Below, piece by piece: positions 847 through 31,600 of a stretch of DNA of 32,000 bases. The stretch covers positions 1,140,001-1,172,000 of the forward strand of contig NZ_CP034549.1 in the NCBI RefSeq assembly GCF_003966335.1, written 5' to 3'. The DNA comes from Nonlabens ponticola (GTDB lineage: Bacteria > Bacteroidota > Bacteroidia > Flavobacteriales > Flavobacteriaceae). Numbering within the stretch: position 1 is the stretch's first letter; each line of letters begins with the position of its first letter. The notes beneath the pieces are model-generated. The model made no database searches. It was given only the letters and a program-made list of their open reading frames with translations, and was not told the origin of the DNA. The position numbers and the translations under genes are program-made.

Positions 847-1698
847 ATGAATAAATTTAAATCCCTCTTTTTGTTTCATAGGAGACAGCAAAGAGGGATT
901 TTTGTATTAGTAATTATCCTAGTTATCCTTTTAGGATTTAAGTGGTATCAGTCGCAACAACCACTAGAGCCATTAGCGATTGTAGATAATAGCAAGTTTC
1001 AAAAGCAAGTGGATTCCTTAAAGCAAATCGCTGCTAGGAAACGTGATACGATTTATCCTTTCAATCCCAATTACATCACAGATTATCGTGGGTACAAATT
1101 AGGATTGAGTGTTCAAGAGTTGGATAGATTGTCACGCTTTCGCGAAAGCGGAGACTTCATAAACTCTACCGCACAATTCCAGCAAGTAACTCAAGTCAAT
1201 CAACAGTGGCTGGATAGCATCTCACCATACTTTAAATTTCCTGCGTGGGTTACACAGAAGAGTCAACCTAGATATTCCAATAATTATCGTGCGATAAAGG
1301 TCATGGATATCAATCGTGCAACTGCTGATGATCTCAAAAAGGTTTATGGGATAGGTCCTGCATTATCAGGACGTATCATCAAAGAACGTGAGAGATTGGG
1401 TGGATTTATAGATTTTATGCAGGTACGTGGCGTGTACGGCTTGAGTGATTCTACCATGATCAAGGTGAAGGAGAGTTTTACATTATCGCCTAAGAGCGGC
1501 TTCAAAAAAATGGCGTTAAATACGGCAACTAGCGATGAGCTGTTAAGCGTACCTTATTTCAACGACTATCTAGTTGATGCGTTACTCAAGCAAAGAGCAC
1601 TTAGAGAACGTTTTAATAACTGGGATGAGGTGATGCTTACATCACGTTTCCCACAAGAGAAATTATCACTAATACAGCTATATTTGACGCTGGATTAA
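847..1698 (+). CDS. ComEA-like helix-hairpin-helix DNA-binding protein with an N-terminal membrane anchor
   Basis: 283 aa. Has an N-terminal TM segment (GIFVLVIILVILLGF) and two HhH-like segments (DINRATADDLKKVYGIGPALSGRIIKERERLGGF and LNTATSDELLSVPYFNDYLVDALLKQR). Confidence 0.7.
   Translation: MNKFKSLFLFHRRQQRGIFVLVIILVILLGFKWYQSQQPLEPLAIVDNSKFQKQVDSLKQIAARKRDTIYPFNPNYITDYRGYKLGLSVQELDRLSRFRESGDFINSTAQFQQVTQVNQQWLDSISPYFKFPAWVTQKSQPRYSNNYRAIKVMDINRATADDLKKVYGIGPALSGRIIKERERLGGFIDFMQVRGVYGLSDSTMIKVKESFTLSPKSGFKKMALNTATSDELLSVPYFNDYLVDALLKQRALRERFNNWDEVMLTSRFPQEKLSLIQLYLTLD
1135..1150. repeat. 16-nt perfect palindrome CGCTTTCGCGAAAGCG inside the ComEA-like CDS
   Basis: Read directly from the sequence. 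Translated in-frame as R-F-R-E-S-G. Belongs to the 8-copy palindrome family. Confidence 0.9.
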
Positions 1699-1715
1699 AA
1701 AGAACCAATTACCCT

Positions 1716-2885
1716 ATGTATCAATCATATTTTAGTGAAGAGCACAACGCCTTCAGACAAAGTTTCAGAGATTTTTTAAATAAGGAAGCCGTTCCTCACA
1801 TCGATCGATGGGAAGAGACTGGCCAGATAGATCGAGAGATTTTTGAGAAGATGGGTGAGATGGGCTACTTTGGATTATACTATCCAGAAAAATATGGTGG
1901 TCTGGATCTTGATTTCTTCTATACCGTAATCTTTCTTGAAGAAATGCAGCGCATCAATTCTGGTGGTTTTGCAGCAGCTATGTGGGTACAAGCATTTCTA
2001 GGTGCGCAGCACTTACTTAAAGAAGGCGATGAGCGTATCAAACAGGAATACCTCGTTCCTACACTTACAGGTGAGAAAATAGGATGTTTAGGAATTACCG
2101 AGCCATTTGGCGGTAGTGACGTGGCAGGAATGCGTACCACAGCGGTTAAAGATGGTGATGAATGGGTCATTAATGGCTCAAAAACATTTATTACAAATGG
2201 TGTTTACAGTGACTATCTAGTTATAGCTGCCAAGACAGATCCAGAGGCAAAAGGTCGTGGTATCAGCATCTTTGTTATGGACCGCGAGACACCAGGAATA
2301 AGCGCTACAAAACTTAACAAGCTAGGCTGGAGAGCGAGCGACACTGGCGAGATAGGATTCAATAATGTGCGAATTCCAGCTGAAAATCTCATGGGTGAGC
2401 AAGGCAAAGGCTTTCCGTACATTATGCAGCACTTTGCGCTAGAGAGACTTATTATGGGTATTAATTCACACGCTCGTGCAGAGTATGCGATTGAATACAC
2501 TATAGGCTATATGAAGGAGCGATCGGCTTTCGGACAATCATTAGATAAATATCAAGCGCTGCGCCACAAGCTGGCAGACATGATGAGTGAAGTTGAGATG
2601 GCAAAGTGCTTTAACTACAATATCGCTGCCGAGCTGGACAAAGGACTCTATCCAGTAAAAGAGGCCAGCATGTCAAAACTTGTTAGCACAAAAATTGCTG
2701 ACGAGACAATCAACAGTTGCTTACAATTTCTAGGTGGTTACGGCTACATAGAGGAATATCCACTAGCACGCATGTTGCGCGACAGTAGATTGGGACCAAT
2801 TGGAGGTGGTACAAGCGAGATTATGAGAGAAATTATTGCCAAAATGACGATCGATGGCAAGGATTATAAGCCTGCTGCAAAATAG
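1716..2885 (+). CDS. acyl-CoA dehydrogenase
   Basis: 389 aa. ACAD hallmarks are present: GCLGITEPFGGSDVAGMRTTA, WVINGSKTFITNG, and C-terminal GGYGYIEEYPLARMLRDSRLGPIGGGTSEIMREIIAK. Confidence 0.9.
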   Translation: MYQSYFSEEHNAFRQSFRDFLNKEAVPHIDRWEETGQIDREIFEKMGEMGYFGLYYPEKYGGLDLDFFYTVIFLEEMQRINSGGFAAAMWVQAFLGAQHLLKEGDERIKQEYLVPTLTGEKIGCLGITEPFGGSDVAGMRTTAVKDGDEWVINGSKTFITNGVYSDYLVIAAKTDPEAKGRGISIFVMDRETPGISATKLNKLGWRASDTGEIGFNNVRIPAENLMGEQGKGFPYIMQHFALERLIMGINSHARAEYAIEYTIGYMKERSAFGQSLDKYQALRHKLADMMSEVEMAKCFNYNIAAELDKGLYPVKEASMSKLVSTKIADETINSCLQFLGGYGYIEEYPLARMLRDSRLGPIGGGTSEIMREIIAKMTIDGKDYKPAAK

Positions 2886-2986: not shown

Positions 2987-4351
2987 ATGAAAAAATTTAG
3001 GCTTCATTTTTTATTTCTATTTGCAGTTTTCGGACTGCTCTCATGCTCTGAAGATATTGAGGAACTAGAAGAAAGTACACAATTAAATCAACCTGTTGTA
3101 GAAAGTAAGGCAGCCAGCCCCAATGGTGTTATGATGCAAGCATTTTACTGGGACGTTCCTGCTGGAGGAACCTGGTGGAACACGATTAAAGGCAAGGTGC
3201 CAGCGTGGTCAAATGCTGGAATTAACGCTATCTGGCTACCGCCAGCTTCTAAGGCTCAAAACGGCGGTTATTCCATGGGATATGATCCTTTTGACTACTT
3301 CGATTTTGGACAGTATAATCAAATGGGAAGTACGCAGACACGCTTTGGATCTAAGAGCGAATTAACTAGCTTGATTACCAAAGCACACCAAAATAACATA
3401 AACGTTTATGCGGATATTGTTCTTAATCACAACAGTGGTGGTGCGCTAGAGTATAATAATTTTGCTGGCAGCAATACCTATACAGACTATGCACCAGCAT
3501 CAGGTATGTTCTATAGGTCTCAATATGATTTTCACCCTAATGATTATCATCACAATGACTCTGGAAAATTTGGTGGGTTTGCAGATTTGTGCCATCATAA
3601 AGGTTATGTTCAAGATCAATTGTACCGTAACTCCAACAGTGTTGCAAAATATTATAAGAACGTGATGAAGTTTGATGGCTGGAGATTTGACTATGTAAAA
3701 GGTTTTGAACCTTGGGTCATTCAAGAGTGGAATAGGAATGCTGGCGGTTTTAGCGTTGGTGAACTTTGGGACGGTAATGCTGCTACTCTGGAAAATTGGG
3801 TGAATCAATCAGGTAGTAGTGCTTTTGACTTTGCGTGTTATTACCGTATGAAAGATGCTTTTCAGGGAAACAATTTATCTCTGCTCAATGGTGATATGTT
3901 ATTAAAGCGCAACCCTGGCAAAGCGGTGACTTTTGTAGCAAATCATGATACTGACGAGATTTTTAATAACAAATTGTTGGCGTATGCCTACATTTTAACG
4001 CATGAAGGATATCCAACTATGTTTTATAGCGATTACGAATCGTGGTTAGATAAAAATAAACTCAATAATTTAATCTGGATTCATAACAATCTGGCTGGTG
4101 GTACGACTAGCTATCTTCATGCTGACAATGATGAGTATGTGGCACGTCGCAATGGATATAACAATAATGGTATCATAGTTTATCTCAACATCAGCAACTC
4201 GTACAAGGAACGCTGGGTTCAGACAAATTGGGGATCACGTCGTATAAAGGATTACACGGGTAATTCTAATTGGGAGCCAGTAACCCAAGGTAATGGTTGG
4301 GTAAAGATCCAGGTACCACCTAATAGTTATACTGTGTGGTCTGTAAAATAA
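2987..4351 (+). CDS. GH13 alpha-amylase, predicted lipoprotein
   Basis: 454 aa. Signal peptide with lipobox (FGLLSC). The four GH13 conserved regions are visible: DIVLNH, GWRFDYVKG, VGELWD and FVANHD. The N-terminus reads MMQAFYWDVP...GGYSMGYDPFDYFDFG. Confidence 0.9.
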   Translation: MKKFRLHFLFLFAVFGLLSCSEDIEELEESTQLNQPVVESKAASPNGVMMQAFYWDVPAGGTWWNTIKGKVPAWSNAGINAIWLPPASKAQNGGYSMGYDPFDYFDFGQYNQMGSTQTRFGSKSELTSLITKAHQNNINVYADIVLNHNSGGALEYNNFAGSNTYTDYAPASGMFYRSQYDFHPNDYHHNDSGKFGGFADLCHHKGYVQDQLYRNSNSVAKYYKNVMKFDGWRFDYVKGFEPWVIQEWNRNAGGFSVGELWDGNAATLENWVNQSGSSAFDFACYYRMKDAFQGNNLSLLNGDMLLKRNPGKAVTFVANHDTDEIFNNKLLAYAYILTHEGYPTMFYSDYESWLDKNKLNNLIWIHNNLAGGTTSYLHADNDEYVARRNGYNNNGIIVYLNISNSYKERWVQTNWGSRRIKDYTGNSNWEPVTQGNGWVKIQVPPNSYTVWSVK

Positions 4352-4362
4352 TATTGTTGATG

Positions 4363-4386
4363 ATTACGCTTTCGCGAAAGCGTAAT
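4363..4386. repeat. 24-nt perfect palindrome ATTACGCTTTCGCGAAAGCGTAAT, 12 nt after the amylase stop
   Basis: The reverse complement of 4363-4374 equals 4375-4386 exactly. This is the longest member of the palindrome family. Confidence 0.9.
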
Positions 4387-4393
4387 AAATAAC

Positions 4394-4422
4394 TTGCAAT
4401 TAAAGATATTTATGTATTTTTG
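4394..4422 (+). promoter_or_regulatory. candidate Bacteroidetes-type sigma-A promoter for rpsU
   Basis: TTG at 4394-4396 and TATTTTTG (matches TAnnTTTG) at 4415-4422, 18 nt apart. It lies about 30 nt upstream of the rpsU start. Confidence 0.5.
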
Positions 4423-4433
4423 CCGTCCCAAAG

Positions 4434-4445
4434 AAAGGAGGTGAT
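4434..4445 (+). promoter_or_regulatory. extended Shine-Dalgarno sequence AAAGGAGGTGAT upstream of rpsU
   Basis: AAGGAGGTGAT is complementary to the canonical 16S 3' end (complement UAAGGAGGUGAUC). The GGAGG core at 4437-4441 is 10 nt before the ATG at 4452. I saw no comparable SD before the other starts I checked (tuf, rpoB, rpoC and the giant gene). Confidence 0.8.
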
Positions 4446-4451
4446 GACACT

Positions 4452-4646
4452 ATGTTAATTATACCAGTTAAAGACGGAGAAAATATCGATAGAGCCCTGA
4501 AGCGTTTCAAACGTAAATTTGATCGCACAGGAAAAATGCGCGAATTGCGCAGACGTCAGCAATTTACAAAACCGTCAGTTGCAAAACGTGCTCAAAAAAT
4601 CAAAGCAGAATACATTCAGCACTTAAGAGATCAAGAGAATATCTAG
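4452..4646 (+). CDS. rpsU: 30S ribosomal protein S21 (bS21)
   Basis: 64 aa, basic. MLIIPVKDGENIDRALKRFKRKFDRTGKMRELRRRQQFTKPS is a typical bS21 sequence. Confidence 0.95.
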   Translation: MLIIPVKDGENIDRALKRFKRKFDRTGKMRELRRRQQFTKPSVAKRAQKIKAEYIQHLRDQENI

Positions 4647-4672
4647 ATCATAAGTAAAGAATTTTAACAAAG

Positions 4673-4711
4673 CGATCAGGTAAAATCTTATTTTTATCTG
4701 ATCGTTTTTTT
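4673..4711 (+). terminator. candidate rho-independent terminator after rpsU
   Basis: CGATCAG (4673-4679) pairs with CTGATCG (4698-4704), followed by T7 (4705-4711). The 18-nt loop is large, so this is only moderate support. Confidence 0.45.
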
Positions 4712-5605
4712 ATGCAAGAAAGTCAATTTGAAAAATATCTGAGACTAGAAAGACAATATAGTGTCCATACAGTAGAGGCTTACAGTAATGATGTTGCACA
4801 GTTCCTTGATTTTGTCACAGAAAATTTTGAAACAGATGCTGCACAGGTCAATTATCCTATGGTGAGGAGTTGGCTTGCTGTACTATTAGAGCAGCAGGTA
4901 AGTAATCGTAGCATCAACCGTAAGATGTCGTCCCTCAAGACTTATTTCAAATACTTGCAACTCAGCGGCATTGTCGACAGCAACGTCATGAATAAGCACA
5001 AGAGTTTGAAAGTTAATAATAACATTCAAACGCCCATGTCACCAGACGAGATTAAAAGTCTCTTATCACAACCAATAGATGAAACAGACTTTACCGCCGT
5101 GCGCGATAGATGTGTCATGGAACTATTATACACCGCTGGCCTGCGACGAGCAGAGCTCATTTCATTGACAATTGCTTCTATTGATCATCAAAAAAAGCAG
5201 TTGATTGTAAACGGTAAGCGCAACAAGCAGCGATTGATACCGCTGCTTCCTTCAATGCTAGAAAGGATTAATAATTACAAGGTACTGCGGGAACTCCATT
5301 ATTCCTCAAGCACCGTTCAGGAATTGTTTATCACTTCAAAAGGCAAACCGATTTATCCTACATTGCTATATAGAATTGTGACTACACAACTAAAAAGCAT
5401 AAGTAGCAAGACCAAAGTAAGTCCTCATATCTTAAGGCATACGTTTGCCACTCATTTAATCAATAATGGCGCAGAGCTTAATGGAGTAAAGGAGTTGTTG
5501 GGTCATGCTAGTTTGGCAAGCACACAAGTCTATACTCATTCCAGTATGGAAGCGCTCAAGAAAGTTCACGCACTGGCTCATCCACGCAATAATAAGAAAC
5601 GGTAA
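4712..5605 (+). CDS. tyrosine site-specific recombinase, XerC/XerD family
   Basis: 297 aa. N-terminal SAM-like core-binding domain. The catalytic residues are present in LYTAGLRRAEL, HILRHTFATHL and LLGHASLASTQVYTH. Confidence 0.85.
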   Translation: MQESQFEKYLRLERQYSVHTVEAYSNDVAQFLDFVTENFETDAAQVNYPMVRSWLAVLLEQQVSNRSINRKMSSLKTYFKYLQLSGIVDSNVMNKHKSLKVNNNIQTPMSPDEIKSLLSQPIDETDFTAVRDRCVMELLYTAGLRRAELISLTIASIDHQKKQLIVNGKRNKQRLIPLLPSMLERINNYKVLRELHYSSSTVQELFITSKGKPIYPTLLYRIVTTQLKSISSKTKVSPHILRHTFATHLINNGAELNGVKELLGHASLASTQVYTHSSMEALKKVHALAHPRNNKKR

Positions 5606-5669
5606 GTCACCTTAATCTGGAGTCTTTGACTGTAGATGTAAGTCATTTAAAATTTTACTTATAATTTTT

Positions 5670-5698
5670 TTGGTAATTAAAAAATAGGCTTACATTTG
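5670..5698 (+). promoter_or_regulatory. candidate Bacteroidetes-type promoter for the tRNA-tuf operon
   Basis: (T)TTG ends at 5672 and TACATTTG (TAnnTTTG) is at 5691-5698. The 18-nt spacing matches the rpsU candidate. It lies about 50 nt upstream of the first tRNA. Confidence 0.5.
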
Positions 5699-5747
5699 CA
5701 GTCCGTTAGAAATAACGGAATTTTTGGTGCCTTAAATTGTACCATAA

Positions 5748-5821
5748 GCCGATGTAGCTCAGCTGGCTAGAGCAGCTGATTTGTAATCAGCAGGTCGTGG
5801 GTTCGAGTCCCTCCATCGGCT
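5748..5821 (+). tRNA. tRNA-Thr (anticodon UGU)
   Basis: Cloverleaf folded by hand. Acceptor GCCGATG/CATCGGC, anticodon stem GCTGA/TCAGC, loop TTTGTAA, T-loop GGTTCGAGTCC. CCA is not encoded. Confidence 0.95.
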
Positions 5822-5853
5822 CAAGTTTTTTGAAAAATTGAATTAATTAATTT

Positions 5854-5934
5854 GGGGAGATACTCAAGCGGCCAACGAGGACGGACTGTAACTCCGTTGG
5901 GAAACCTTCGCAGGTTCGAATCCTGCTCTCCCCA
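5854..5934 (+). tRNA. tRNA-Tyr (anticodon GUA), long variable arm
   Basis: Acceptor GGGGAGA/TCTCCCC, anticodon stem ACGGA/TCCGT, loop CTGTAAC, long variable arm, T-loop GGTTCGAATCC. Confidence 0.95.
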
Positions 5935-5970
5935 CTTTTTTAATTACTGTGCCGATTTATTGGTGCAATT

Positions 5971-6043
5971 GCGAGAGTAGCTCAGTTGGTAGAGCGTCAG
6001 CCTTCCAAGCTGAATGTCGCCGGTTCGAACCCGGTCTCTCGCT
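5971..6043 (+). tRNA. tRNA-Gly (anticodon UCC)
   Basis: Acceptor GCGAGAG/CTCTCGC, anticodon stem TCAGC/GCTGA, loop CTTCCAA, T-loop GGTTCGAACCC. Confidence 0.95.
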
Positions 6044-6098
6044 CAAAATAGAGTAATGCCTTTCTTGATTTTAGAATGATAAAGTCATGAAAAAACAG

Positions 6099-6170
6099 GC
6101 CGGTGTAGCTCAGGGGTAGAGCGTTTCCTTGGTAAGGAAGAGGTCACGAGTTCAAATCTCGTCATTGGCT
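6099..6170 (+). tRNA. tRNA-Thr (anticodon GGU)
   Basis: Acceptor GCCGGTG/CATTGGC with two G-U pairs, anticodon stem TTTCC/GGAAG, loop TTGGTAA, T-loop AGTTCAAATCT. Confidence 0.9.
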
Positions 6171-6287
6171 CAAAAGTATTGAAGAAAAAAATAGGTCTTT
6201 AGCGAGGCCATTTACAGTATAAGCTGATGTGGTTTGTAGCCAGTTGGTTTTAAATTGAAACACTAATATAAACTAAGATTATAAGTT

Positions 6288-7475
6288 ATGGCAAAAGAAA
6301 CGTACGATCGTTCGAAACCGCACCTTAACGTAGGTACCATTGGTCACGTTGACCACGGTAAGACTACGCTTACTGCTGCAATCACTAAGGTTCTTGCTGA
6401 TGCTGGTTTTTCTTCAGCAACAAGTTTTGACCAAATTGACAACGCTCCTGAAGAAAAAGAGCGTGGTATTACAATTAACTCTTCACACGTTGAGTATCAA
6501 ACAGAAAACAGACACTACGCACACGTAGATTGTCCTGGTCACGCCGATTATGTAAAAAACATGGTAACAGGTGCTGCTCAAATGGACGGTGCTATTCTTG
6601 TAGTTGCTGCAACTGATGGGCCAATGCCACAAACACGTGAGCACATCCTTCTAGGACGTCAGGTAGGTATTCCACGTATCGTTGTTTTCCTTAACAAGGT
6701 TGACATGGTAGATGATGAGGAGCTACTCGAGCTAGTTGACATGGAAGTACGTGATCTATTGAGTTTCTATGAGTATGACGGTGACAATGGTCCTGTTGTA
6801 TCTGGATCTGCACTAGGCGCACTTAATGGTGAGCAAAAGTGGGTTGACACAGTACTTGAATTGATGAAAGCCGTTGATGAGTGGATAGAAGAGCCGGTTC
6901 GTGATATGGACAAGCCTTTCTTGATGCCTATCGAGGACGTTTTCTCTATTACAGGTCGTGGTACTGTAGCAACTGGTCGTATTGAGACTGGTGTTGCTAA
7001 CACAGGTGATCCTGTTGAGATTATTGGTATGGGTGCTCAGAAGTTGAACTCTACTATTACAGGTATTGAGATGTTCCGTCAAATCCTTGATAGAGGTGAG
7101 GCTGGTGATAATGCGGGTATCCTATTGAGAGGTATTGAGAAGTCTCAAATCTCACGTGGTATGGTAATCACTAAGCCAGGATCAGTAACACCACACGCTA
7201 AGTTTAAAGCTGAGGTTTATATCTTGAAAAAAGAAGAAGGTGGACGTCACACTCCATTCCACAACAACTACCGTCCACAGTTCTACGTTCGTACAACTGA
7301 CGTGACAGGAAACATCAAGCTTCCTTCAGGTGTTGAAATGGTAATGCCAGGTGATAACCTTACTATCGAAGTTGATTTGATCCAACCTATTGCAATGAAC
7401 ATAGGCCTACGTTTTGCTATCCGTGAAGGTGGTAGAACAGTAGGTGCTGGTCAGGTTACTGAGATCCTAGACTAA
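6288..7475 (+). CDS. tuf: translation elongation factor Tu
   Basis: 395 aa. GTPase motifs [17 protein letters not shown] and NKVD are present, with full-length EF-Tu-like sequence. Confidence 0.99.
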
Positions 7476-7490
7476 GGAAATTAAATAAAT

Positions 7491-7530
7491 AAAGTATCCT
7501 GTTTAATCACGCAATTAGACAGGATACTTT
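7491..7530 (+). terminator. hairpin after tuf (candidate terminator or processing structure)
   Basis: 12-bp stem AAAGTATCCTGT (7491-7502) pairs with ACAGGATACTTT (7519-7530) around a 16-nt loop. The downstream T-tract (CCCTTTATTA) is weak. Confidence 0.5.
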
Positions 7531-7558
7531 CCCTTTATTAAGTGGGTTATAATAGTTG

Positions 7559-7574
7559 CGCTTTCGCGAAAGCG
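7559..7574. repeat. 16-nt perfect palindrome CGCTTTCGCGAAAGCG between tuf and tRNA-Trp
   Basis: Read directly. Same 16-mer as at 1135-1150. Confidence 0.9.
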
Positions 7575-7609
7575 GAATGATCAAACAAACATCCTGCTTC
7601 ATTAAGATT

Positions 7610-7682
7610 GCGGGTTTAGCTCAGTTGGTAGAGCACTGGTCTCCAAAACCAGGTGTCGGGAGTTCGAGCCTCTCAACCCGCG
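7610..7682 (+). tRNA. tRNA-Trp (anticodon CCA)
   Basis: Acceptor GCGGGTT/AACCCGC, anticodon stem CTGGT/ACCAG, loop CTCCAAA, T-loop AGTTCGAGCCT. Confidence 0.95.
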
Positions 7683-7761
7683 CAAATTTGAAGTCAGATA
7701 TTTACTTTACGTGATGTCTGATTGAGTAATGGACATTAAAGTTCAAACACGTTAAACGATT

Positions 7762-7959: not shown

Positions 7960-7968
7960 TACTACAAC

Positions 7969-8523: not shown

Positions 8524-8589
8524 ATGTTACAGTTTATAGATATGATAGAGGCTTCCACTTTTATTATATCAAACATTGAAAATTAAGAA

Positions 8590-9030: not shown

Positions 9031-9040
9031 AACTTAGAAG

Positions 9041-9739: not shown

Positions 9740-9749
9740 AACCTAAATC

Positions 9750-10265: not shown

Positions 10266-10317
10266 CAATCAATTAGTACGCAATTAATTATTTATAAATT
10301 TTATTAAAACGATAGAA

Positions 10318-10692: not shown

Positions 10693-10714
10693 TTCTTCAC
10701 AACCCAACATTATC

Positions 10715-14626: not shown

Positions 14627-14637
14627 TTTTACCAGTA

Positions 14638-14685
14638 AGGATTGTGGTTAGTTAGCTTTCGCGAAAGCAAAATAGCGACAATCCT
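14638..14685. repeat. nested inverted repeat in the rpoB-rpoC spacer, with the family palindrome GCTTTCGCGAAAGC at 14655-14668
   Basis: Outer arms AGGATTGT (14638-14645) and ACAATCCT (14678-14685) flank the 14-nt perfect palindrome at 14655-14668. Confidence 0.8.
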
Positions 14686-19678: not shown

Positions 19679-22600
19679 ATGAATAACTTTACTCGTTCCC
19701 TATCTGTTTTAAGGAGTACTAGTTTATTGAAGTTCCCTATACTTCTAGCGATTCTACTAGCCTCATTGCAGTCTATAGCTCAGTCAGATCCAGTATTCCC
19801 TAATACCGCGAGACTTATTGAAGGTACTGATTTGCAGGAAGGTGCTGTGTATTTATTGCCTAATGCGGTAGAAGCCGGCGTTAATGGTACTGAAAACGCA
19901 GATGCCTTGTTAACCATTGTTGATATTATAGGTACTGCATCGGTAAATTCAATCGATATTACTCAAATAGAGCAAACCTATTTTGAGCCTAGTATTACAT
20001 ATCGAGCGGCTGGTGACGCGGTAGAATTCGAGATGATCTTTATAAGATCTGGCTCTGCAGAGCCAAATCTTGAAGATGCAGTAAAGCTGCCTATCGATAG
20101 TTATTCGATGGCGGTCATAGATTTAGATGGTGCTGAATTTGCTAACATACTTGTACCTGCGAGTTATACACTAGATAATAATACGCAACTTACTGATATA
20201 GTGACACCTGGTGATCCATATGTTCAGTTTACCAGCCCTCAAAATCCATTTGCCGCTGGAGCCAGCATAGCAAATACTGAATACATTGTTCAGGTCAATT
20301 ATGTTGACGTAAGCCGGGTCAACTTTATCCTAGGTAGAAATGTCAATGCTACCTCTACCAGAAATATCTCCATAAGTTTTTTAGGTGATGTTAATTTCAC
20401 GGCCCAAAACTCTACAACTAACGAGGTGAATAATCCGCCTCTGGTCGTTAACCAACAAGGTTCTACACGTTTTAATACAACCAGTATAAGCTTTGATCTA
20501 CTTGATGGATCGTCTGATCCCCAAGGAAATATAGATCCCAGCACACTGTTTTTGGTGGATCCGAATGATGCAAATAACTTTGGTGAGGTAGGTACGCCTC
20601 TCACAATTCCAGGTCAAGGAACCTATGTCGTGCAAAACGATGCTACTGTGACCTTTGATCCAGAGACTGGTTTCTTGGGGAACGCAGTCGTCAATTTTAG
20701 GGTAGAGGATCTGCCAGGCGCTACTTCCAATACTGCTAGCTTAATTGTTAATGTTGATAGGGATTCTGATGGTGACGGGATTGATGATTCGGTCGATCTT
20801 GATGATGATAATGATGGTATTCCAGATCTAATTGAAGCAGGTGGTCAGGTCAATGACTCTGCAGATTGTAGTGGTGGTCAATTGAATTTTGCTGCGGCAA
20901 ATGCAACATTGGAGTCAGGTAGTGATAATGGCGTTGTTGATGAAGGTGATGTTTTTAGATTTGCCAATGTCCAGACTAATCCTGGAGTGGATGCTTTAAT
21001 TACCATTGTTAATTATGACAGTGCGCAAATTGTCGATATAGATGATGAGACCGTTGGAGTTGGTTTTGCAGAAGGTTTTCAACCACGTATTCAATATATA
21101 GGTGCTGGTAATCCTGGCGTTGATTTACTTTTTAGTTTCGTAGAGTCGGGTACTAATAACCCGGTAACGCTAGATTCATTTTCTGGTGTGGTAAATGATG
21201 TGGATGGAACTGGCGTTCGTGAGGCATATGTTATAAACGATCCAGCCTTTTACGCTCTTAATAATCCAACCAATCTTGTCGCTACTAATTTAGGTGGCGG
21301 CAACATAAGATTTTCGGCTGATGGTCAATCAGATCAAGCCAGTATTGGAACTGCTCCCGAATATCAAGGTTATTTTCAATTCAACAATGTACAGCAAGTA
21401 CCTTTGCGTGTAGAGTTTTTAAACCCTAACAACAACACGCGAACAAGACAATTTAGTATACTCATTGATGAGTGCGCTATCAATTCTTTTGATGAGCCAC
21501 TTGTAGTAATTGATACAGAAAATGCACCAGATAGCGATGGCGATGGCATTGATGATTATCTGGATTTAGACTCTGATAATGACGGTATCTATGATGTGGT
21601 AGAGGCCGGTCATGACGCAGCACAATCAAATGGTGTATTGACTGGACCGGTAGGAACAGACGGTATTCCAGATGCAGTGCAAGATGCTGGCGATGAGGAT
21701 AGCGGCGAGGTCAATTACACACTTGTAAATTCAGATTCTGTTGGTGAGCCAGATTATTTAGATCTTGATAGTGACGGTGATGGATGTACTGATAGTAATG
21801 AAGCCTATGCAGATTCAAATGCTGATGGCGACGATGATGGTCAATTCGGTAGTGGATTACCCGCTGCGACAAACAATAATGGTACAGTAGCTTCCGCTAG
21901 TTACAATGCACCTGCGGACCAGAATTCTAATAGTGTAGCAGACTTTCGCGAAAGCGGTCCAGACGTCAATGGCGACAATAGGCCAGACGCCTGTTTTCCT
22001 CCTGTAGATTCTGACGGAGATACCGTTTTTGACAATAGAGATCTTGACGATGATAATGATGGTATCCTTGATATAGTTGAGGAATTAGGATTTGACGACA
22101 GTAATTGTGATCAACCAGAGGTAAACATAATCGGGACTAATGCAAACCTTGAATCGGGAACCGCCGGTGAGATAGGTGCTGTTTATAGATTTCCCAATGC
22201 TATCCCATCGCAAAATCGTGACGTTTTAGTTACGATTGTTGATAAGTCAGATGCGGCGACCCTTATCGATATTGATACACCTAATGGAAATCAATTGCGC
22301 AACGTTGCCTTAAGACCTCGTATAAGGGACAACAATCTTACTGATGGTGTAGCCGCAACCGTGACTTTTGAGCTTACTGTTGTTGAAAATGGACAAAATA
22401 CACCACTGACGATTGAAAGATTTGGTGGTATTGCTGGTGATATAGATGGTGTCAATCCTGGTAATGAGGTGGTTACCATAATTGATCCAGATTATCTTGC
22501 GGTTGATGAGACTACTTTGCTTTCGCGAAATGACTTACCTAACGATCGCTACGAGTATCCTAGTCCCGTAGGAGCAAATAATGTGACCGAGGAGAGAAAA

Positions 22601-25600
22601 GCGGTCTTTTTTGCCTACAACTCTCCGAGAACCTCTGTAGAAATACAATTAGGTGTAAACGGATCCTCTGATTCTGGTACAACTACAGATGACGAGCGAT
22701 TAGGTCTAGTAACTTTTGGTGAATGTACGATCAACACCTTACCAGACCCTAATCTTGATGTAATAAATGGCCGCGATCCAGACGGTGACGGTATCCCAAA
22801 TTCCCGTGATATTGACGCTGATAACGATGGTATCATTGATATAGTTGAAAATGGAAACGGTGATCTTGACGCAGACGGTGATGGCATAATTGATGGCCCA
22901 GTAGGCAGTAACGGTGTTCCTGATAGTGTTGAGAATGGTGGTGCTGATTCTGGAGACGTTGATTTTCCAGATGATTTTGACAATGATGATATTTTAAATT
23001 TCCTTGACCTTGACTCTGACGATGACAGCATTGCAGACAATGTAGAAGGTCAACCTACAGATTCTTACCAGACTCCAGTAGCAGGCGATGGCAATAATAA
23101 TGGTCTGTTAGATATCTATGAGCAAGGTGGTACCACTGGTATTGACCCAGAAAATACAGATGGTACAGATGGTCCTGACTTTTTAGACCTGGACTCTGAC
23201 AATGATTCCATCAGTGATCTAAATGAGGCAAACGATGACAACCTCGATGGTATAGCAGATATTCAGCCCTCAGGAGATGATGTAGATGAAGATGGTCTTG
23301 ACGACGCTTTTGATAGCGATGCAAATGATTTTGGAGATTTAAATGGTGGGTTTGTAGATACAGACCCTGCTGCAGATCTTACTAATAGTGATGGCGCTGA
23401 TGATGTAAATTATCGTGACACAGATGATGACAATGATGGGACGCTCACTAGCGATGAGGTTACAGACCCAAATAATCCAGAAGATGGAAACGGTAATGGA
23501 ATTCCAGACTTCCTAGAAAATATAGACACAGATGGTGACGGAATTCAAGACGATGTTGATGTCGATGATGACAACGATGGTATTCTAGACACGGTCGAAG
23601 GTCAAGGTGATCGTGATAATGATGGTATTCCTAATTCTCTCGATCTAGATTCTGATGGCGATGGGCTACCAGATAATATCGAGGCTCAAACTACCTTAGG
23701 CTATGTAGTGCCTCTAGATAGTGACAATGATGGTATTCCAGATGTAAATGCAAATGGTTTACCTACTTCTTATGATTTTAATGGTGACGGTTTAGGGTTA
23801 CTACCTGTAAATACTGACAACGCAGATCAGCCTGACTACCTGGACTTAAACTCTGATAATCAAGGTGATAACGATACAGTTGAGGCTGGCATCACGCTAA
23901 CTGGCGATGACACAGATGGTGACGGTCTAGATGATGCTACAGATGAGACTGACTCACCAGCTGGCAACTATGCAGATCCTAATGGAACCATTGATGACCC
24001 AGCGCTTCTACCAGATACCGATGGTGATTTGAATTCTGGAGGTAATGTTGATTTTAGAGATAGAACCTTGCCTAACGATGCAGATGGTGATGGCGTTCTG
24101 GACAAAGATGATCTTGATGATGATAACGATGGTATCAGTGATATTACGGAAGGTTTAGAGTTTTTCGTTGATGATTCTGCTACGTGTAGCGGTATCGATT
24201 ATGAGTTTAACGGCGGCACATTAATCGCTGGAACTGCAGGTCAAGTAGGTGCTAGATATAGATTTAGCAATGTGGCGCCTGGCCTTGACGCTATTATACA
24301 AATCACCCAACGCAGTGCAGGTGCTACACTTGCAAGTATCGATCAAAATTTAGGTGATGGTTCTGCATGGCAGCCATCCATCAGCTACTCTGCAGCTTCA
24401 AATGGTGATCTTACCATGACATTTAGAGTAGAGCTGGTAACTACTGGAACCCAAACGCTTGCCACGGTTGATCGCATAGGTGGCGTCATTCAAGATATTG
24501 ACAGCGATGGTACCGGTAGAATTAGAGAATTTTATAGATTATCAAACTTAGATAATTACACCGTTGACGCTAACACTAGAGTCATCGCTCAAGAGCTAGG
24601 TGGTGGTCAGTTCCAGTTCCGTGCAAATGGTACTGGTAGCGCGCCTATTGAGCCTATCGACACAGATCCTGCTTACAAGGTGTTCTTCCAGAGACAAGAC
24701 GTAAATCAGTTTACCTATGTAATAGGTGTAACTAAAAATATTAATCAAGCACAGACTAGATTCTACAGCGCTCGATTTGACGAGTGTCGTATTAACACAT
24801 TTGACGAGCCAGTAGTCGTTATCGTCAATGCACCAGATACTGACAATGATGGAACCCCTAATTATTTAGATACAGATTCAGATAATGATGGTTGTAATGA
24901 TACCATTGAGGCTGGTTTTGTTGATGCTTTCGCGAAAGCGGACGAAGACGGATTCCTAGGTAACGGTACACCAGTTGTAGAACCATCAAATGGTTTAGTG
25001 ACAAGTGGTAACAATGGCGAAGGTTACACAGAACCTAGAGACGCAAACAACAATGGCATTTTTGATTTCTTAGAAGCTGGATATTCAGAGGCTTGTAATG
25101 ATACAGACGGCGATGGTATAAATGACCTAGTCGACATCGACGATGACAACGACGGTATCTTGGATACCGATGAGGATGCAGATGATGATGGTGACGGCAA
25201 CCCGTTCACGGATCCTACGGATACTGACAATGATGGTATCCCAGACTTCCTTGACCAGGATGCAGATGGTGATGGTATCCCAGATAATGTAGAGGGCCAG
25301 ACCACCGATGGTTATGTGGAGCCTAGTGGCAATGATACCGATGGCAATGGTCTTGATGATGCCTATGAGGCGACTCCAGGCTCTGGTGATGGTATCAATG
25401 TAGAGGATACGGACACTGACGGCACACCTGACTATCAGGATACGGACTCAGACGACGATGGCGTCAACGATATCTTTGAGGGAACCGATAGAGACGGTGA
25501 TGGCACTCCAGATGTGGTTCCAGCAGGAACAGATACGGACAACGACGGTATCGACGACAACTTTGATGATACTGATGGTTATGCAGATCCTAACGGTAAC

Positions 25601-28600
25601 CAGGTAACAAACGATCCAGAGACAGAGCTTGCCAATATTGATGGTGATGAGCAGCCCAACTACCGTGATAGAGATGATGATGGTGACAACGTGCTTACCG
25701 CAGACGAGAACCCAGACCCTAACGGCGATGGCGATCCTAGCGACGCGCAGGATACCGACAATGATGGCATCCCAGATTATCTGGATACGGACGATGACGG
25801 CGACGGCATAGACACCGCAGATGAGGACTATGACGGTGATGATGATCCAACGGATCAGGACAGCGACAACGATGGCATCCCAGATTACTTAGATGATGAT
25901 GATGACGGTGACAACGTTCTTACCGCAGATGAGACCCCAGATCCTAACGGTGATGGTAATATCGACGACGCACAGGATACTGATAGTGACGGTATCCCAG
26001 ATTACCTAGATGAGGATGATGACGGCGATGGCATTGATACGGTCAATGAAGATTATGATGGTGACAATGATCCAACAGATCAGGATAGCGATAGTGACGG
26101 CATTCCAGATTATCTAGATGAGGATGATGATAACGATGGCATCGATACGATCGACGAGAATCCAGACCCTAACGGTGATGGTGATCCAGCCGATGCACAG
26201 GATAGCAATGGCGATGGTGTTCCAGACTACCTGGATACTACAGATATCGATGGTGATGGAATCGTGGATTCTGTCGACATCGACGATGACAACGACGGTA
26301 TCTTGGATACTGATGAGGATGCAGATGATGACGGTGACGGCAACCCGTTCACGGATCCTACGGATACTGACAATGATGGTATCCCAGACTTCCTTGACCA
26401 GGATGCAGATGGTGATGGTATCCCAGATAATGTAGAGGGCCAGACCACCGATGGTTATGTGGAGCCTAGTGGCAATGATACCGATGGCAATGGTCTTGAT
26501 GATGCCTATGAGGCGACTCCAGGCTCTGGTGATGGTATCAATGTAGAGGATACGGACACTGACGGCACACCTGACTATCAGGATACGGACTCAGACGACG
26601 ATGGCGTCAACGATATCTTTGAGGGAACCGATAGAGACGGTGATGGCACTCCAGATGTGGTTCCAGCAGGAACAGATACGGACAACGACGGTATCGACGA
26701 CAACTTTGATGATACTGATGGTTATGCAGATCCTAACGGTAACCAGGTAACAAACGATCCAGAGACAGAGCTTGCCAATATTGATGGTGATGAGCAGCCC
26801 AACTACCGTGATAGAGATGATGATGGTGACAACGTGCTTACCGCAGACGAGAACCCAGACCCTAACGGCGATGGCGATCCTAGCGACGCGCAGGATACCG
26901 ACAATGATGGCATCCCAGATTATCTGGATACGGACGATGACGGCGACGGCATAGACACCGCAGATGAGGACTATGACGGTGATGATGATCCAACGGATCA
27001 GGACAGCGACAACGATGGCATCCCAGATTACTTAGATGATGATGATGACGGTGACAACGTTCTTACCGCAGATGAGACCCCAGATCCTAACGGTGATGGT
27101 AATATCGACGACGCACAGGATACTGATAGTGACGGTATCCCAGATTACCTAGATGAGGATGATGACGGCGATGGCATTGATACGGTCAATGAAGATTATG
27201 ATGGTGACAATGATCCAACAGATCAGGATAGCGATAGTGACGGCATTCCAGATTATCTAGATGAGGATGATGATAACGATGGCATCGATACGATCGACGA
27301 GAATCCAGACCCTAACGGTGATGGTGATCCAGCCGATGCACAGGATAGCAATGGCGATGGTGTTCCAGACTACCTGGATACTACAGATATCGATGGTGAT
27401 GGAATCGTGGATTCTGTCGACATCGACGATGACAACGACGGTATCTTGGATACTGATGAGGATGCAGATGATGACGGTGACGGCAACCCGTTCACGGATC
27501 CTACGGATACTGACAATGATGGTATCCCAGACTTCCTTGACCAGGATGCAGATGGTGATGGTATCCCAGATAATGTAGAGGGCCAGACCACCGATGGTTA
27601 TGTGGAGCCTAGTGGCAATGATACCGATGGCAATGGTCTTGATGATGCCTATGAGGCGACTCCAGGCTCTGGTGATGGTATCAATGTAGAGGATACGGAC
27701 ACTGACGGCACACCTGACTATCAGGATACGGACTCAGACGACGATGGCGTCAACGATATCTTTGAGGGAACCGATAGAGACGGTGATGGCACTCCAGATG
27801 TGGTTCCAGCAGGAACAGATACGGACAACGACGGTATCGACGACAACTTTGATGATACTGATGGTTATGCAGATCCTAACGGTAACCAGGTAACAAACGA
27901 TCCAGAGACAGAGCTTGCCAATATTGATGGTGATGAGCAGCCCAACTACCGTGATAGAGATGATGATGGTGACAACGTGCTTACCGCAGACGAGAACCCA
28001 GACCCTAACGGCGATGGCGATCCTAGCGACGCGCAGGATACCGACAATGATGGCATCCCAGATTATCTGGATACGGACGATGACGGCGACGGCATAGATA
28101 CGGCGGATGAGGACTATGACGGCGATGATGATCCAACAGATCAGGACAGCGACAACGACGGCATTCCAGATTATTTGGATACGGATGATGACGATGACAA
28201 CGTGCCTACGGCAGATGAGAACCCAGACCCTAACGGTGATGGTAATATCGACGATGCACAGGATACTGATAGTGACGGTATCCCAGATTACCTGGATGAG
28301 GATGATGACGGCGACGGCATTGATACGGTCAATGAAGATTATGATGGTGACAACGATCCAACAGATCAGGATAGTGATAATGACGGCATTCCAGATTATC
28401 TAGATGACGATGATGATAATGACGGCATTGACACGATCGACGAGAATCCAGACCCTAACGGTGATGGTGATCCAACCGATGCACAGGATAGCAATGGCGA
28501 TGGTGTTCCAGACTACCTGGATACTACAGATACCGATGCTGATGGAATCGTGGATTCTGTCGACATCGACGATGACAACGACGGTATTTTGGATACCGAT

Positions 28601-31600
28601 GAGGATGCAGACAATGACGGTGACGGCAACCCGTTCACGGATCCTACGGATACTGACAATGATGGTATTCCAGACTTCCTTGACCAGGATGCCGATGGTG
28701 ATGGTATCCCAGATAATGTAGAGGGCCAGACCACCGATGGTTATGTGGAGCCTAGTGGCAATGATACCGATGGCAATGGTCTTGATGATGCCTATGAGGC
28801 GACTCCAGGCTCTGGTGATGGTATCAATGTAGAGGATACGGACACTGACGGCACACCTGACTATCAGGATACGGACTCAGACGACGATGGCGTCAACGAT
28901 ATCTTTGAGGGAACCGATAGAGATGGCGATGGCACTCCAGATGTGGTTCCAGCAGGAACAGATACGGACAACGACGGTATCGACGACAACTTTGATGATA
29001 CTGATGGTTATGCAGATCCTAACGGTAACCAGGTAACAAACGATCCAGAGACAGAGCTTGCCAATATTGATGGTGATGAGCAGCCCAACTACCGTGATAG
29101 AGATGATGATGGTGACAACGTGCTTACCGCAGACGAGAACCCAGACCCTAACGGCGATGGCGATCCTAGCGATGCGCAGGATACCGACAATGATGGCATC
29201 CCAGATTATCTGGATACGGACGATGACGGCGACGGCATAGACACGGCGGATGAGGACTATGACGGCGATGATGACCCAAAGAATCAGGACTCAGACAACG
29301 ACGGCATTCCAGATTATTTGGATACGGATGATGACGATGACAACGTGCCTACGGCAGATGAGAACCCAGACCCTAACGGTGATGGTAATATCGACGATGC
29401 ACAGGATACTGATAGTGACGGTATCCCAGATTACCTGGATGAAGATGATGACGGTGATGGCATTGACACAGTTGATGAGAATCCAGATCCTAACGGTGAT
29501 GGAAACGTCGATGATGCACAGGATACTGATGGCGATGGCATTCCAGATTATTTAGATGTTGATGATAGGGATGGTGATGGTATACCAGACGCATTAGATA
29601 TTGATGATGATAATGACGGTATTCTTGACAGTGTAGAGAATGGTGGGCAGGATCCTTTTGAGGATGACGATAATGACGGTGTTCCTAATTTCAGAGATAC
29701 TGACTTTGGTGCAGATGCTAACAACGACGGTGTTGTAGATAGCTTTGATAGTGACGATGATGGAATCATTAATCAATTTGATCAAGATTCAGACGGTGAT
29801 GGTATTCCAGATAATGTCGAGGCTCAGTTTACTGATACTTATCAGGAACCAACTGGTGCAGACAATAATAATGATGGTCTCAACGATGATTATGCTCCTA
29901 ATGGTATAACTCCAGTTGATTCAGATAATGATGGTACACCAGACTATTTGGATGATGATTCAGATGATGATGGCATTACTGATGCTATAGAAGGCTTTGA
30001 TTTTGATAATGATGGTGTCGCAGACTCTGTTCCTAGCGGTGTCGACAATGATGGCGATGGTTTCGATGATAATTTTGATGCTACCACAGATCCAGCGGAC
30101 GCCTACGATGATCCTAATGGTAATTTAGTTTCTAATGACCCTGCAAATGAACTGAACAATACAGATGGCGAGGATGAACCAGATTATCGTGATACAGATG
30201 ATGACAATGATAATGTCTTAACTGATGTAGAGGTAACTGATAATGACAATCCAGAAGATTCTGATAACGATGGTATTCCAGATTATCTGGATGCAGATGA
30301 TCGTGACGGTGATGGCATTCCAGACACTGTAGATATTGATGATGACAATGACGGGGTTTTAGACAGCGTAGAAAACGGTGGTAATGATCCATTTAATGAT
30401 ACTGACAATGATGGTGTAGCAGATTTGTTTGACACAGACTTTGGTCCAGATTCAAATAATGATAGTATCGTTGATAGTTTTGATAGCGATCTTGATGGTA
30501 TCATCGATCAATTTGATCAGGACTCAGATGACGATGGTATTCCAGACAATGTCGAGGCACAGACTACTTCAGGATACACCGCACCTACCGGTAATGACGA
30601 TGACAATGATGGTCTTGACAACGCATATGAGGCAAATGGTATAACACCTGTCGATACTGATAGTGATACGATCCCAGACTATTTAGATGATGATTCTGAT
30701 GATGATGGTATTTCTGATAATATAGAAGGATTTGATTTTGATAATGATGGCGTTGTTGATATCGCTTTCGCGGAAGCGGACAATGATAACGACGGTCTGG
30801 ACGACAATTTTGATTCAACCACAGATCCAGCTGATGCTTATGATGATCCTAACGGAAACGTCGTCTCTAACGATCCAGCTAATGAGCTAAATAATACTGA
30901 CGGTGCAGATGAACCAGATTATCGTGATGCTGATGATGATAATGATGGTGTTGATACGGATGACGAGGTAACAGATAATGACAACCCAGAAGATTCTGAT
31001 AACGACGGTATACCAGACTATCTAGATGCAGATGACAATGACGGTGATGGTATTCCGGATACTGTAGATGTAGATGATGATAATGATGGTATTGCAGATG
31101 TTGTTGAAAATGGCGGCAACGATCCTTTCGGAGATGACGACAGTGATGGTATCGCAAATTTCCTAGACGTTGATGGTACTAATGATTCTAATAATGATGG
31201 AATTGTTGATGACTTTGATCAAGACTTAGATGGTATCGTCAATCAGTTTGATCTAGACGCAGATGGTGATGGATTGACAGATGTATTTGAATCAGGCAAC
31301 GCTGCTCTTGACACAAACGATGATGGATTAATCGATAGTCAAGATGCTGGATTCACCGACTCTCCTGCAAATGGACAAGCCGATAACACAGAAGGTACAA
31401 CACCAATCGACAGTGATGGTGATGGCGTTGCCGATTATCTTGACATTGATTCAGATAACGATGGTATAATTGATAATCTTGAAATTCAGGATTCTGCAAA
31501 TACGACAAGGCCAACAGGACAAGATGATGATGGTGATGGAACTGACAATGCCTATGATGCTGATAATGGAGGAACTCCAATCTTAACACCAGAAAATACT

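Follow-up and report, generated by a model that had tools for sequence, protein, structure and literature searches.

Background

The systems closest to the motif described here are the DNA uptake sequence (DUS) of Neisseriaceae, ATGCCGTCTGAA, the uptake signal sequence (USS) of Pasteurellaceae, AAGTGCGGT plus an AT-rich flank, and the highly iterated palindrome HIP1 of cyanobacteria, GCGATCGC. The function of DUS and USS is known, while that of HIP1 has been debated for 30 years. To our knowledge, no uptake sequence is known in Bacteroidota. This report concerns a 16-bp palindrome, CGCTTTCGCGAAAGCG, which an earlier note had picked out by its shorter core in 32 kb of DNA from Nonlabens ponticola. 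That whole 32-kb stretch is called the window, and coordinates are window positions unless another locus is named. CGCTTTCGCGAAAGCG is a lineage-specific, highly iterated palindrome of Nonlabens and Dokdonia which is kept at the DNA level, and it is a new case akin to DUS/USS and HIP1 that is a member of neither family.

Uptake sequences are 9-12 nt long and explicitly non-palindromic, and they lie within open reading frames (ORFs) in 65% of cases in H. influenzae and 35% in N. gonorrhoeae, with an excess in non-coding DNA (PMC1939737). Within genes they prefer one reading frame and use permissive positions of the protein (PMC2817400; PMC2397512). One DUS is enough, two close motifs give no help, and DUS spacing tracks the size of conversion tracts (PMC2397512). 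Natural transformation occurs in Flavobacteriales, where Riemerella columbina prefers its own DNA and no uptake motif has been identified (PMC7965970). HIP1 is conserved by selection, and its quasi-periodic distribution has been interpreted as nucleoid structure (PMC5861425). Two orphan methyltransferases are tied to HIP1 (PMC4390886), and in Synechococcus transformation is reported to be more efficient with HIP1 sites (bioRxiv 10.1101/2024.09.10.611283). The literature was searched in full text for this motif, for any iterated palindrome or uptake sequence in Nonlabens and Dokdonia, for iterated palindromes in Flavobacteria at large and for uptake sequences in Bacteroidetes, and no description was found.

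A palindrome iterated in one lineage

The 10-mer core TTTCGCGAAA occurs exactly seven times in the window, where dinucleotide shuffles give an expectation of 0.03 and none of 100 shuffles reached seven. With up to two mismatches allowed, the 14-mer GCTTTCGCGAAAGC occurs eight times against 0.06 expected, and at each length from 8 to 14 the most frequent palindrome in the window belongs to this same TTTCGCGAAA/GCTTTCGCGAAAGC motif. The full unit is the 16-mer CGCTTTCGCGAAAGCG, which is exact at three sites, has one mismatch at two and two mismatches at another two (Table 1). Three window copies are intergenic and five are coding: one in a ComEA-like gene and four in a giant Asp-rich repeat ORF. 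The coding copies use three frames, giving FRESG twice, AFAKA/AFAEA and LSRN, and no copy lies inside tuf, the ribosomal-protein genes, rpoB or rpoC. The claims of the earlier note were borne out: its seven exact cores and eight copies, the three sites 3' of the amylase gene, tuf and rpoB, the five sites within the ComEA-like and giant genes, the absence from the other genes named, and the three frames. The 16-mer starts 15, 83 and 27 nt past the stops of the amylase gene, tuf and rpoB.

One genome per bacterial species was scanned for exact CGCTTTCGCGAAAGCG, which gave at least 120 eight-kb bins, all selected for the motif. Among the bins listed, 107 of 120 come from Dokdonia, Nonlabens or related Flavobacteriaceae metagenome-assembled genomes, often with 2-3 exact copies per 8 kb, and the 13 bins from outside this clade each hold the seed copy alone. 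A second, motif-blind set was built from 20-kb syntenic loci found through ComEA-like orthologues in five other Nonlabens species and one Flavobacterium, and was extended by 80 metagenomic loci from an alignment-based scan; no Dokdonia locus is among the syntenic loci. The eight motif-blind Nonlabens loci (178 kb) contain 35 exact copies of CGCTTTCGCGAAAGCG, where chance predicts far below one. The same DNA contains five one-mismatch and four two-mismatch copies, so perfect copies far outnumber near copies. Syntenic DNA of other Flavobacteriaceae, 925 kb in all, holds no exact copy and two cores only, and a search of 74 syntenic loci of other Flavobacteriaceae for other iterated palindromes, as local "dialects", found none.

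The density is about one exact copy per 5 kb in the 178 kb of Nonlabens DNA, and about one per 11 kb over mixed species by a zero-truncated Poisson fit to the motif-selected bins. Extrapolation from the sampled loci and bins gives an estimate of several hundred copies per genome (about 300-700), and the bin coordinates are spread over all parts of the chromosome sampled. The earlier note had proposed comparing the motif's frequency with the k-mer background beyond the window, and had considered that the coding copies might be chance matches. The excess is lineage-wide and far above background, and the coding copies sit at orthologous positions.

Conservation of the DNA sequence

The copies in the ComEA-like gene, in a DUF2851 gene and upstream of rpsU are each common to 5-10 species, with diverged flanks. 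The DUF2851 copy is present in seven of seven loci. Of the six species first compared, five have the copy upstream of rpsU in exact form and N. ulvanivorans has a decayed one; the Flavobacterium outgroup has none. The flanks of this copy are not alignable. Two metagenomic loci (L168 and L171) have copies with 2-3 mismatches, placed about equally far downstream of the ComEA-like gene. Further orthologous copies lie in the interval from xerC/hpf to the tRNA cluster, after tuf, in namZ and, in degenerate form, in rpoB. The peptide orthologous to that of the 24925..24940 copy, GFIDAFAKADEDG in N. dokdonensis (locus L081), is also motif-bearing. Copy positions hold across species whose proteins are about 65% identical. 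The degenerate rpoB copy reads (A/C)GTTTTCGCGAAAGTG and codes FRESE in three species (L121 20198, L122 20352 and L124 20129); it is not in the rpoB of N. ponticola.

What is conserved is the DNA and not a peptide. Of the AFAKA peptides in clade loci, 66 of 69 are encoded by the motif, as are 25 of 25 FRES and 23 of 26 LSRK peptides, and peptides nearly like these are essentially absent there. Among coding copies the AFAKA frame is preferred, with FRES and LSRK about equal behind it. The codon CGC makes up 16% of Arg codons, yet all six species first compared have it at both Arg positions of RFRES in the ComEA-like gene. This RFRES is spelled CGC TTT CGC GAA AGC G in 10 of 11 Nonlabens loci, the eleventh having one mismatch, and neighbouring synonymous sites in the gene vary freely across species. 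The peptide is kept in Flavobacterium too, spelled AAA TTT AGG GAA ACG. As a control, the NVFRESFR of the adjacent acyl-CoA dehydrogenase has variable codons and never presents the full motif. Codon usage is unable to account for the motif. The earlier note's view that DNA or RNA is conserved, rather than peptide, is upheld by the three frames, the motif-encoded peptides, the fixed rare CGC and the dehydrogenase control.

The protein alignments also indicate how the genic copies arose. The outgroup's RYNYIVTK in DUF2851 corresponds, without an indel, to E[FY]AFAKAK in all Nonlabens species, and the ComEA-like copy needed no amino-acid change, RFRES being older than the motif. Coding copies were therefore built by substitution at tolerant positions. 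An in-frame insertion element, like the Rickettsia palindromic element, was considered and rejected by the same kind of alignment. The earlier note had placed the coding copies in fast-evolving genes: the placement was right, but rate of evolution fails as the reason for the ComEA-like copy, where RFRES is conserved and no residue had to change. Several copies in the AFAKA frame fall on the A-x-A cleavage sites of signal peptides. These copies lie 12-45 codons from the start, right after a hydrophobic stretch (e.g. LLLFMTAFA/KAQ); examples are L024 1304, L072 3060, L057 1668, L007 5485, L067 3356 and L014 4856. The origin of the spacer copies is less clear than that of the coding copies. The copy after tuf sits in an indel of about 40 nt: N. 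ponticola, N. agnitus and N. marinus have the segment (in N. marinus with one mismatch in the copy), and three species lack it.

Unit, spacing and flanks

The core unit comprises the entire 16-bp palindrome, to which intergenic copies add T-A...T-A, and about 25 nt of strand-asymmetric flank on each side. All 16 positions are near-invariant in the logo, partly forced by seeding. In intergenic copies, position -2 is also T (90%) and position -1 is A, and T-A follows symmetrically at +1/+2, which makes a 20-bp palindrome. Since half-sites alone are not enriched, isolated ones being no commoner than decayed full copies, the whole palindrome is the unit. An 8-9-mer half-site as the true unit, in the manner of an inverted DUS pair, was rejected on this ground.

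A larger structured hairpin was rejected as well, because chimeras with swapped flanks show no site-specific complementarity in coding copies: a copy's own flanks have no pairing advantage over those exchanged from site to site, in ungapped comparison or by folding. In intergenic copies the consensus T-A...T-A is the sole extension of the stem. No covarying stem pairs or compensatory changes were found among the copies, and the core hairpin alone is weak, at -4.3 kcal/mol. With no covarying stem and no enrichment of half-sites, recognition of the sequence by a dimer is favoured over selection for a generic hairpin. Outside the motif, bare TCGCGA, the hexamer for which the earlier note had suggested a methylation link, is at background frequency, as is CGCG outside the full motif; restriction-type avoidance or enrichment of TCGCGA was rejected, as neither was seen.

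Of 204 cores, 121 are inside ORFs (about 59% coding and 41% intergenic), and intergenic DNA is about 4.7 times denser in copies than coding DNA. The intergenic copies are split over tandem, convergent and divergent spacers as spacer length predicts, with no promoter-side or convergent bias found among them. Within tandem-gene spacers, 27 of 51 copies lie no more than 28 nt from the upstream stop. Below 1-2 kb, copies avoid one another: of 90 neighbour distances, only 6 (6.7%) are shorter than 1 kb, where 29.6% are expected (p = 1.6e-7). The bins were ascertained on one copy, and this test was conditioned on copy number per bin. Two pairs of copies are only 67 and 88 nt apart.

The flanks are strand-asymmetric for 25-30 nt on each side of the motif. 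In the 5' flank, C makes up 8-13% (background 19%) and T climbs to as much as 46%; in the 3' flank, G is at 8-14%, A reaches 48% and C reaches 27%. The asymmetry is seen in coding copies (third codon positions included) and in intergenic copies, and on both sides of single sites. Its direction is that of C-to-T and A-to-G change on the 5' flank of each strand, which would fit recurrent single-strandedness. The alternative is that the bias comes from selection, for example against a terminator-like U-tract or for DNA shape.

Copies in phages

A search of IMG/VR returned 40 stretches with CGCTTTCGCGAAAGCG. Several low-GC contigs among them, with tape-measure, major-head, baseplate and integrase genes, have 3-6 copies inside phage genes. 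Two contigs from different samples, 3300036669_000050 and 3300039191_000376, share identical motif-bearing segments (L132/L138, L147/L156 and L154/L156); apparently both are temperate phages, related to each other and presumably of this host clade, whose structural genes carry the copies. The virulent Nonlabens phage P12024S has no copy in its 35.7 kb, where the density of the host predicts 3.5-7.

Comparison with described systems

Like DUS and USS, CGCTTTCGCGAAAGCG is lineage-restricted, hyper-abundant, short and exact. It occurs in genes in all frames, with one preferred and permissive positions used, and is over-represented between genes. It arises in place and is then stringently conserved, perfect copies outnumbering those with one mismatch. 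Its spacing fits one copy per fragment, it is absent from a virulent phage, and, as in USS, a sharply defined core is joined to a weakly defined compositional flank. DUS and USS, however, are asymmetric 9-12-mers, whereas CGCTTTCGCGAAAGCG is a perfect 16-bp palindrome. It is also 5-10 times less dense, belongs to Bacteroidota, is present in prophage-like contigs, and has flanks that are strand-asymmetric on both sides.

HIP1 shares with CGCTTTCGCGAAAGCG the palindromic form, the hyper-abundance in one lineage in coding and non-coding DNA alike, and conservation between genomes beyond neutral expectation, both within and between ORFs (cf. PMC5861425). Neither is explained as a peptide, an RNA or a gene-regulatory signal, and the spacing of both is non-random. 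For HIP1 there are recent hints of a link to transformation. The two differ in that CGCTTTCGCGAAAGCG is twice as long (16-20 bp against 8), is unrelated in sequence, belongs to a different phylum and occurs about once per 5 kb, while HIP1 occurs more than once per gene on average in some cyanobacteria (PMC5861425). HIP1 also has cognate orphan methyltransferases, and no cognate one is known for CGCTTTCGCGAAAGCG. Because the sequence and form that define DUS/USS and HIP1 are not its own, CGCTTTCGCGAAAGCG stands outside both families.

Two further groups are similar in part. Repetitive extragenic palindromic sequences (REPs), with the related bacterial interspersed mosaic elements (BIMEs) and REPINs, are also short GC-rich palindromes with hundreds of copies (an estimate in the case of CGCTTTCGCGAAAGCG), enriched between genes and often found after stops. 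REPs are extragenic, imperfect, oriented hairpins in clusters or doublets which are spread by insertion, whereas CGCTTTCGCGAAAGCG is mostly intragenic, derived by substitution, mutually repelling and positionally stable. The other group is that of parS, the Noc-binding site (NBS), the SlmA-binding site (SBS) and matS: 14-16-bp perfect or near-perfect palindromes read by dimers, often genic and positionally conserved. In form, CGCTTTCGCGAAAGCG resembles the Noc-binding site ATTTCCCGGGAAAT and parS TGTTTCACGTGAAACA, and its TTTC...GAAA half-sites recall both. The ParB, Noc, SlmA and MatP systems have roughly 4-70 sites in confined regions of the chromosome. CGCTTTCGCGAAAGCG has an estimated several hundred, in all chromosome parts sampled, and the spacing of its half-sites is off by 2 bp, TTTC standing 1 bp from the dyad in CGCTTTCGCGAAAGCG and 2 bp from it in parS and NBS.

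A putative self-DNA signal

The explanation that we favour, tentatively, is that CGCTTTCGCGAAAGCG is a duplex-DNA site for a putative dimeric protein and serves as a self-DNA signal in uptake or recombination, in a manner like DUS/USS or HIP1. Because sequence and not pairing is conserved, and because the whole dyad is needed, a symmetric and probably dimeric sequence-specific protein would read the palindrome on duplex DNA. New genic copies appear by point substitution at places where the protein tolerates AFAKA, FRES or LSRK, and are then held letter-perfect at orthologous positions while the neighbouring DNA diverges. The most likely role would be that of a "self-DNA" tag during natural transformation. 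Tagged fragments would be preferentially taken up or recombined, which would continually restore perfect copies and favour roughly one copy per recombination-sized fragment. Molecular drive, selection or both may be at work, as for DUS, USS and, on recent evidence, HIP1.

This explanation is ranked first because the set of properties (lineage restriction, origin by substitution at permissive positions, preferred frame, intergenic excess, stringent conservation, more perfect than near copies, repulsion and absence from a virulent phage) matches what is documented for DUS/USS, and because competence is found in Flavobacteriales and HIP1 has been linked to transformation. Of the four options in the earlier note, an uptake-type signal thus fits best, though it is unproven. 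A more specific version, which is possible but doubtful, is a palindromic 16-bp self signal for uptake or recombination with a dimeric receptor. Uptake-type sequences would then extend for the first time beyond Proteobacteria, and for the first time to a palindrome; the flanks would record a symmetric step of DNA opening or processing at each site.

Several points weigh against a self-DNA signal. A perfect palindrome of 16 bp would need a different, dimeric receptor from that of the uptake sequences. The density of about one per 5-10 kb is 5-10 times below that of DUS/USS, and the uptake model does not predict strand-asymmetric flanks. Competence and self-DNA preference are known only in Riemerella, not in Nonlabens or Dokdonia. 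Recently acquired DNA in Neisseria is without DUS, which makes the temperate-phage-like contigs with 3-6 copies awkward unless these phages are long-term residents. Finally, a site that structures the chromosome would be just as likely to show conserved positions, exact copies and even spacing.

Other explanations

Such a structuring role is unlikely, but it is the main rival. Here the copies would be the binding sites of a lineage-specific nucleoid- or chromosome-organising protein, acting in the manner of Noc, SlmA, MatP or ParB, or as proposed for HIP1 in its structural role. A dimer on several hundred roughly even sites would shape domains, segregation or division-site control, with each site under purifying selection. 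Such a dimer would be in keeping with a perfect 16-bp palindrome whose half-sites alone are not enriched, with orthologous positions conserved in and between genes, with copies spread over whole chromosomes (from the bin coordinates), with chromosome-resident prophage-like contigs that carry copies too, and with over-dispersed copies, the quasi-periodicity of HIP1 having been read as nucleoid structure (PMC5861425). Known systems, though, have tens of sites which are usually more degenerate, whereas hundreds are estimated here and 16 of 16 positions are fixed in most copies. The 2-bp difference in half-site spacing puts the motif outside the parS/Noc family, no candidate protein has been put forward, and the strand-asymmetric flanks would go unexplained. 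It is improbable that the palindrome is instead the by-product or target of an orphan methyltransferase, or of very-short-patch-type repair at TCGCGA or CGCG, with biased repair creating and protecting a site that has no function. In its favour, three CpGs and an NruI-type hexamer lie in the core, a pair of orphan methyltransferases is associated with HIP1 (PMC4390886), and the flank bias runs in the direction of cytosine and adenine deamination on the 5' sides, which hints at single-strandedness or repair tracts. But bare TCGCGA, CGCG and half-sites are at background outside the full motif, and biased repair of a 4-6-bp target is unable to specify 16-20 bp. Positions kept across species amid saturated flanks argue for maintenance of each copy rather than regeneration, the same case as has been made for HIP1 (PMC5861425), and a virulent phage that replicates in a Nonlabens host is without a copy.

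The earlier note had also offered a REP-like element and an operator, and neither fared well. Selfish REP/REPIN-like elements, moved as hairpins by a REP-associated tyrosine transposase (RAYT, IS200/IS605-type), would be short GC-rich palindromes denser between genes, and they could explain the presence/absence indel after tuf and the two close pairs of copies. We consider them very improbable: about 59% of copies are genic (five of eight in the window are coding), coding copies arise without an indel, copies repel rather than cluster or form doublets, positions are stable across species, and the perfect palindrome is without orientation-defining features or a conserved flanking tetranucleotide. 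Least credible of all are operators of an ordinary dimeric transcription factor with a regulon. The palindrome is of operator-like length, and the rpsU promoter region has one conserved copy immediately upstream of it, but the several hundred copies estimated per genome are mostly intragenic and evenly spaced, with all 16 positions near-invariant and no enrichment in divergent or promoter spacers. An RNA stem-loop, whether terminator, 3'-end stabiliser or processing site, is about as hard to credit as the REP-like element. It could account for the tandem-spacer copies that follow closely on a stop, for the 24-nt palindrome after the amylase gene, which folds at -12.5 kcal/mol, and for the rpoB-rpoC spacer, where a hairpin at 14634-14689 with the palindrome at its tip reaches -22.8 kcal/mol (z = -4.0), its arms GGATTGTGGTTA and TAGCGACAATCC pairing around the palindrome. 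Against it, the majority of copies lie in ORFs, in both orientations, and divergent (promoter-side) spacers hold copies at the expected frequency. The core hairpin is weak, and it is sequence that is conserved and not pairing, with no compensatory changes or covariation in the stem. The motif's flanks are T-rich 5' and A-rich 3' on both strands, the reverse of an intrinsic terminator; none of the copies within 4200-15000 was called terminator-like; and an Rfam search of the window matched tRNAs only and not the palindrome. The motif is not the tuf terminator, because tuf has a separate canonical one upstream, whose hairpin is kept in six of six Nonlabens species and which lies 29 nt before the palindrome. 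The copies tested are not intrinsic terminators. In the rpoB-rpoC spacer the motif may have been put to a secondary, local use, a copy having been co-opted into an RNA structure for processing or attenuation. The methylation or repair, REP/RAYT, RNA-hairpin and operator explanations are each contradicted by at least one test.

Gene setting

The copies and the genes around them are listed in Table 1. The amylase-side copy is the middle of a perfect 24-bp palindrome (4363-4386).

Table 1. Copies of the palindrome, the tuf terminator and the genes of the window, with the start of the exact 10-mer core and of the 14-mer (up to two mismatches) given for each copy
Feature	Position	Strand	Setting	10-mer start	14-mer start
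Exact CGCTTTCGCGAAAGCG	1135..1150	.	in HHH_3/ComEA-like gene (847-1698), codes R-F-R-E-S-G	1138	1136
Exact CGCTTTCGCGAAAGCG	4367..4382	.	15 nt past alpha-amylase stop, upstream of rpsU promoter region	4370	4368
Exact CGCTTTCGCGAAAGCG	7559..7574	.	from 83 nt past tuf stop to 35 nt short of tRNA-Trp, downstream of tuf terminator	7562	7560
Copy with 2 mismatches (outermost positions; 14-mer 14655-14668 exact)	14654..14669	.	rpoB-rpoC spacer; begins 27 nt after rpoB stop	14657	14655
Copy with 2 mismatches, core exact	21941..21956	.	giant Asp-rich repeat ORF, codes D-F-R-E-S-G	21944	21942
Degenerate copy, only 10-mer core exact, 14-mer with 2 mismatches	22519..22532	.	giant ORF, codes L-S-R-N	22521	22519
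Copy with 1 mismatch, 14-mer exact	24925..24940	.	giant ORF, codes A-F-A-K-A	24928	24926
Copy with 1 core mismatch (CGCTTTCGCGGAAGCG)	30763..30778	.	giant ORF, codes A-F-A-E-A		30764
Canonical tuf intrinsic terminator	7491..7530	+	17-pair hairpin, then CCCTTTATT		
Na/Ala symporter	11-838				
HHH_3 "ComEA-like" gene	847-1698				
Acyl-CoA dehydrogenase	1716-2885				
Alpha-amylase	2987-4351				
Xer-type integrase	4712-5605				
Four tRNAs			between Xer-type integrase and tuf in gene order		
tuf	6288-7475				
tRNA-Trp, then secE-nusG-rplKAJL			downstream of tuf		
rpoB	10817-14626				
rpoC	14718-19025				
DUF3467 protein	19025-19333				
Asp-rich repeat ORF, >4100 codons	19679 to beyond 32000		runs past the window end		

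The giant ORF (19679-32000 in the window) contains calcium-binding-type repeats in units of 108 and 225 bp, and a super-repeat of 1143 bp is apparent from short ORFs at 26118, 27261 and 28404. Its GC content is 46-49%, against about 41% elsewhere, and in Pfam it matches CshA_repeat alone, and weakly. In the ComEA-like protein, Nonlabens has a single N-terminal module (YPFNPNYI...RFRES...PYFKFPxW), and the Flavobacterium homologues have it two or three times over.

The alpha-amylase gene, which lies in the interval between the acyl-CoA dehydrogenase gene and rpsU, is found in N. ponticola and in the Flavobacterium outgroup (L126 12625-13989) and is missing at this place in five other Nonlabens species (L121-L125). 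This pattern suggests loss in five Nonlabens lineages, not gain in N. ponticola. At a similar distance downstream of the ComEA-like gene, other Flavobacteriaceae have tandem hairpins, TTTTAGCGAAAA...TTTTCGCTAAAA (L206 3527-3660, L221 12254-12400 and L235 7125-7260). Judged by synteny, these hairpins may lie in the spacer upstream of rpsU, where Nonlabens has its 16-mer, and they may be an unrelated terminator or a distant analogue. The N. agnitus locus L121 has a short tandem repeat based on AGGAATGAGGAA, of 8-9 units, which is unrelated to the palindrome.

Implications

Among genome-wide, exact and lineage-specific short motifs of this kind, DUS/USS and HIP1 are the only two classes that have been studied well. 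The palindrome would make a third, independent case, in a different phylum and with an unusually long, information-rich palindromic target. It offers a clean system for asking how such motifs arise and persist. The clade boundary is sharp, with the motif in Nonlabens and Dokdonia and absent from every other flavobacterial locus sampled, and this allows phyletic profiling for the recognition protein. The asymmetry of the flanks looks like the trace of a strand-specific process acting at each site. If the uptake explanation is right, these marine model heterotrophs, proteorhodopsin-bearing Dokdonia among them, should be transformed more efficiently with DNA that has the motif, and the motif would serve as a marker for binning metagenomes and for assigning metagenomic sequences and prophages to their hosts.

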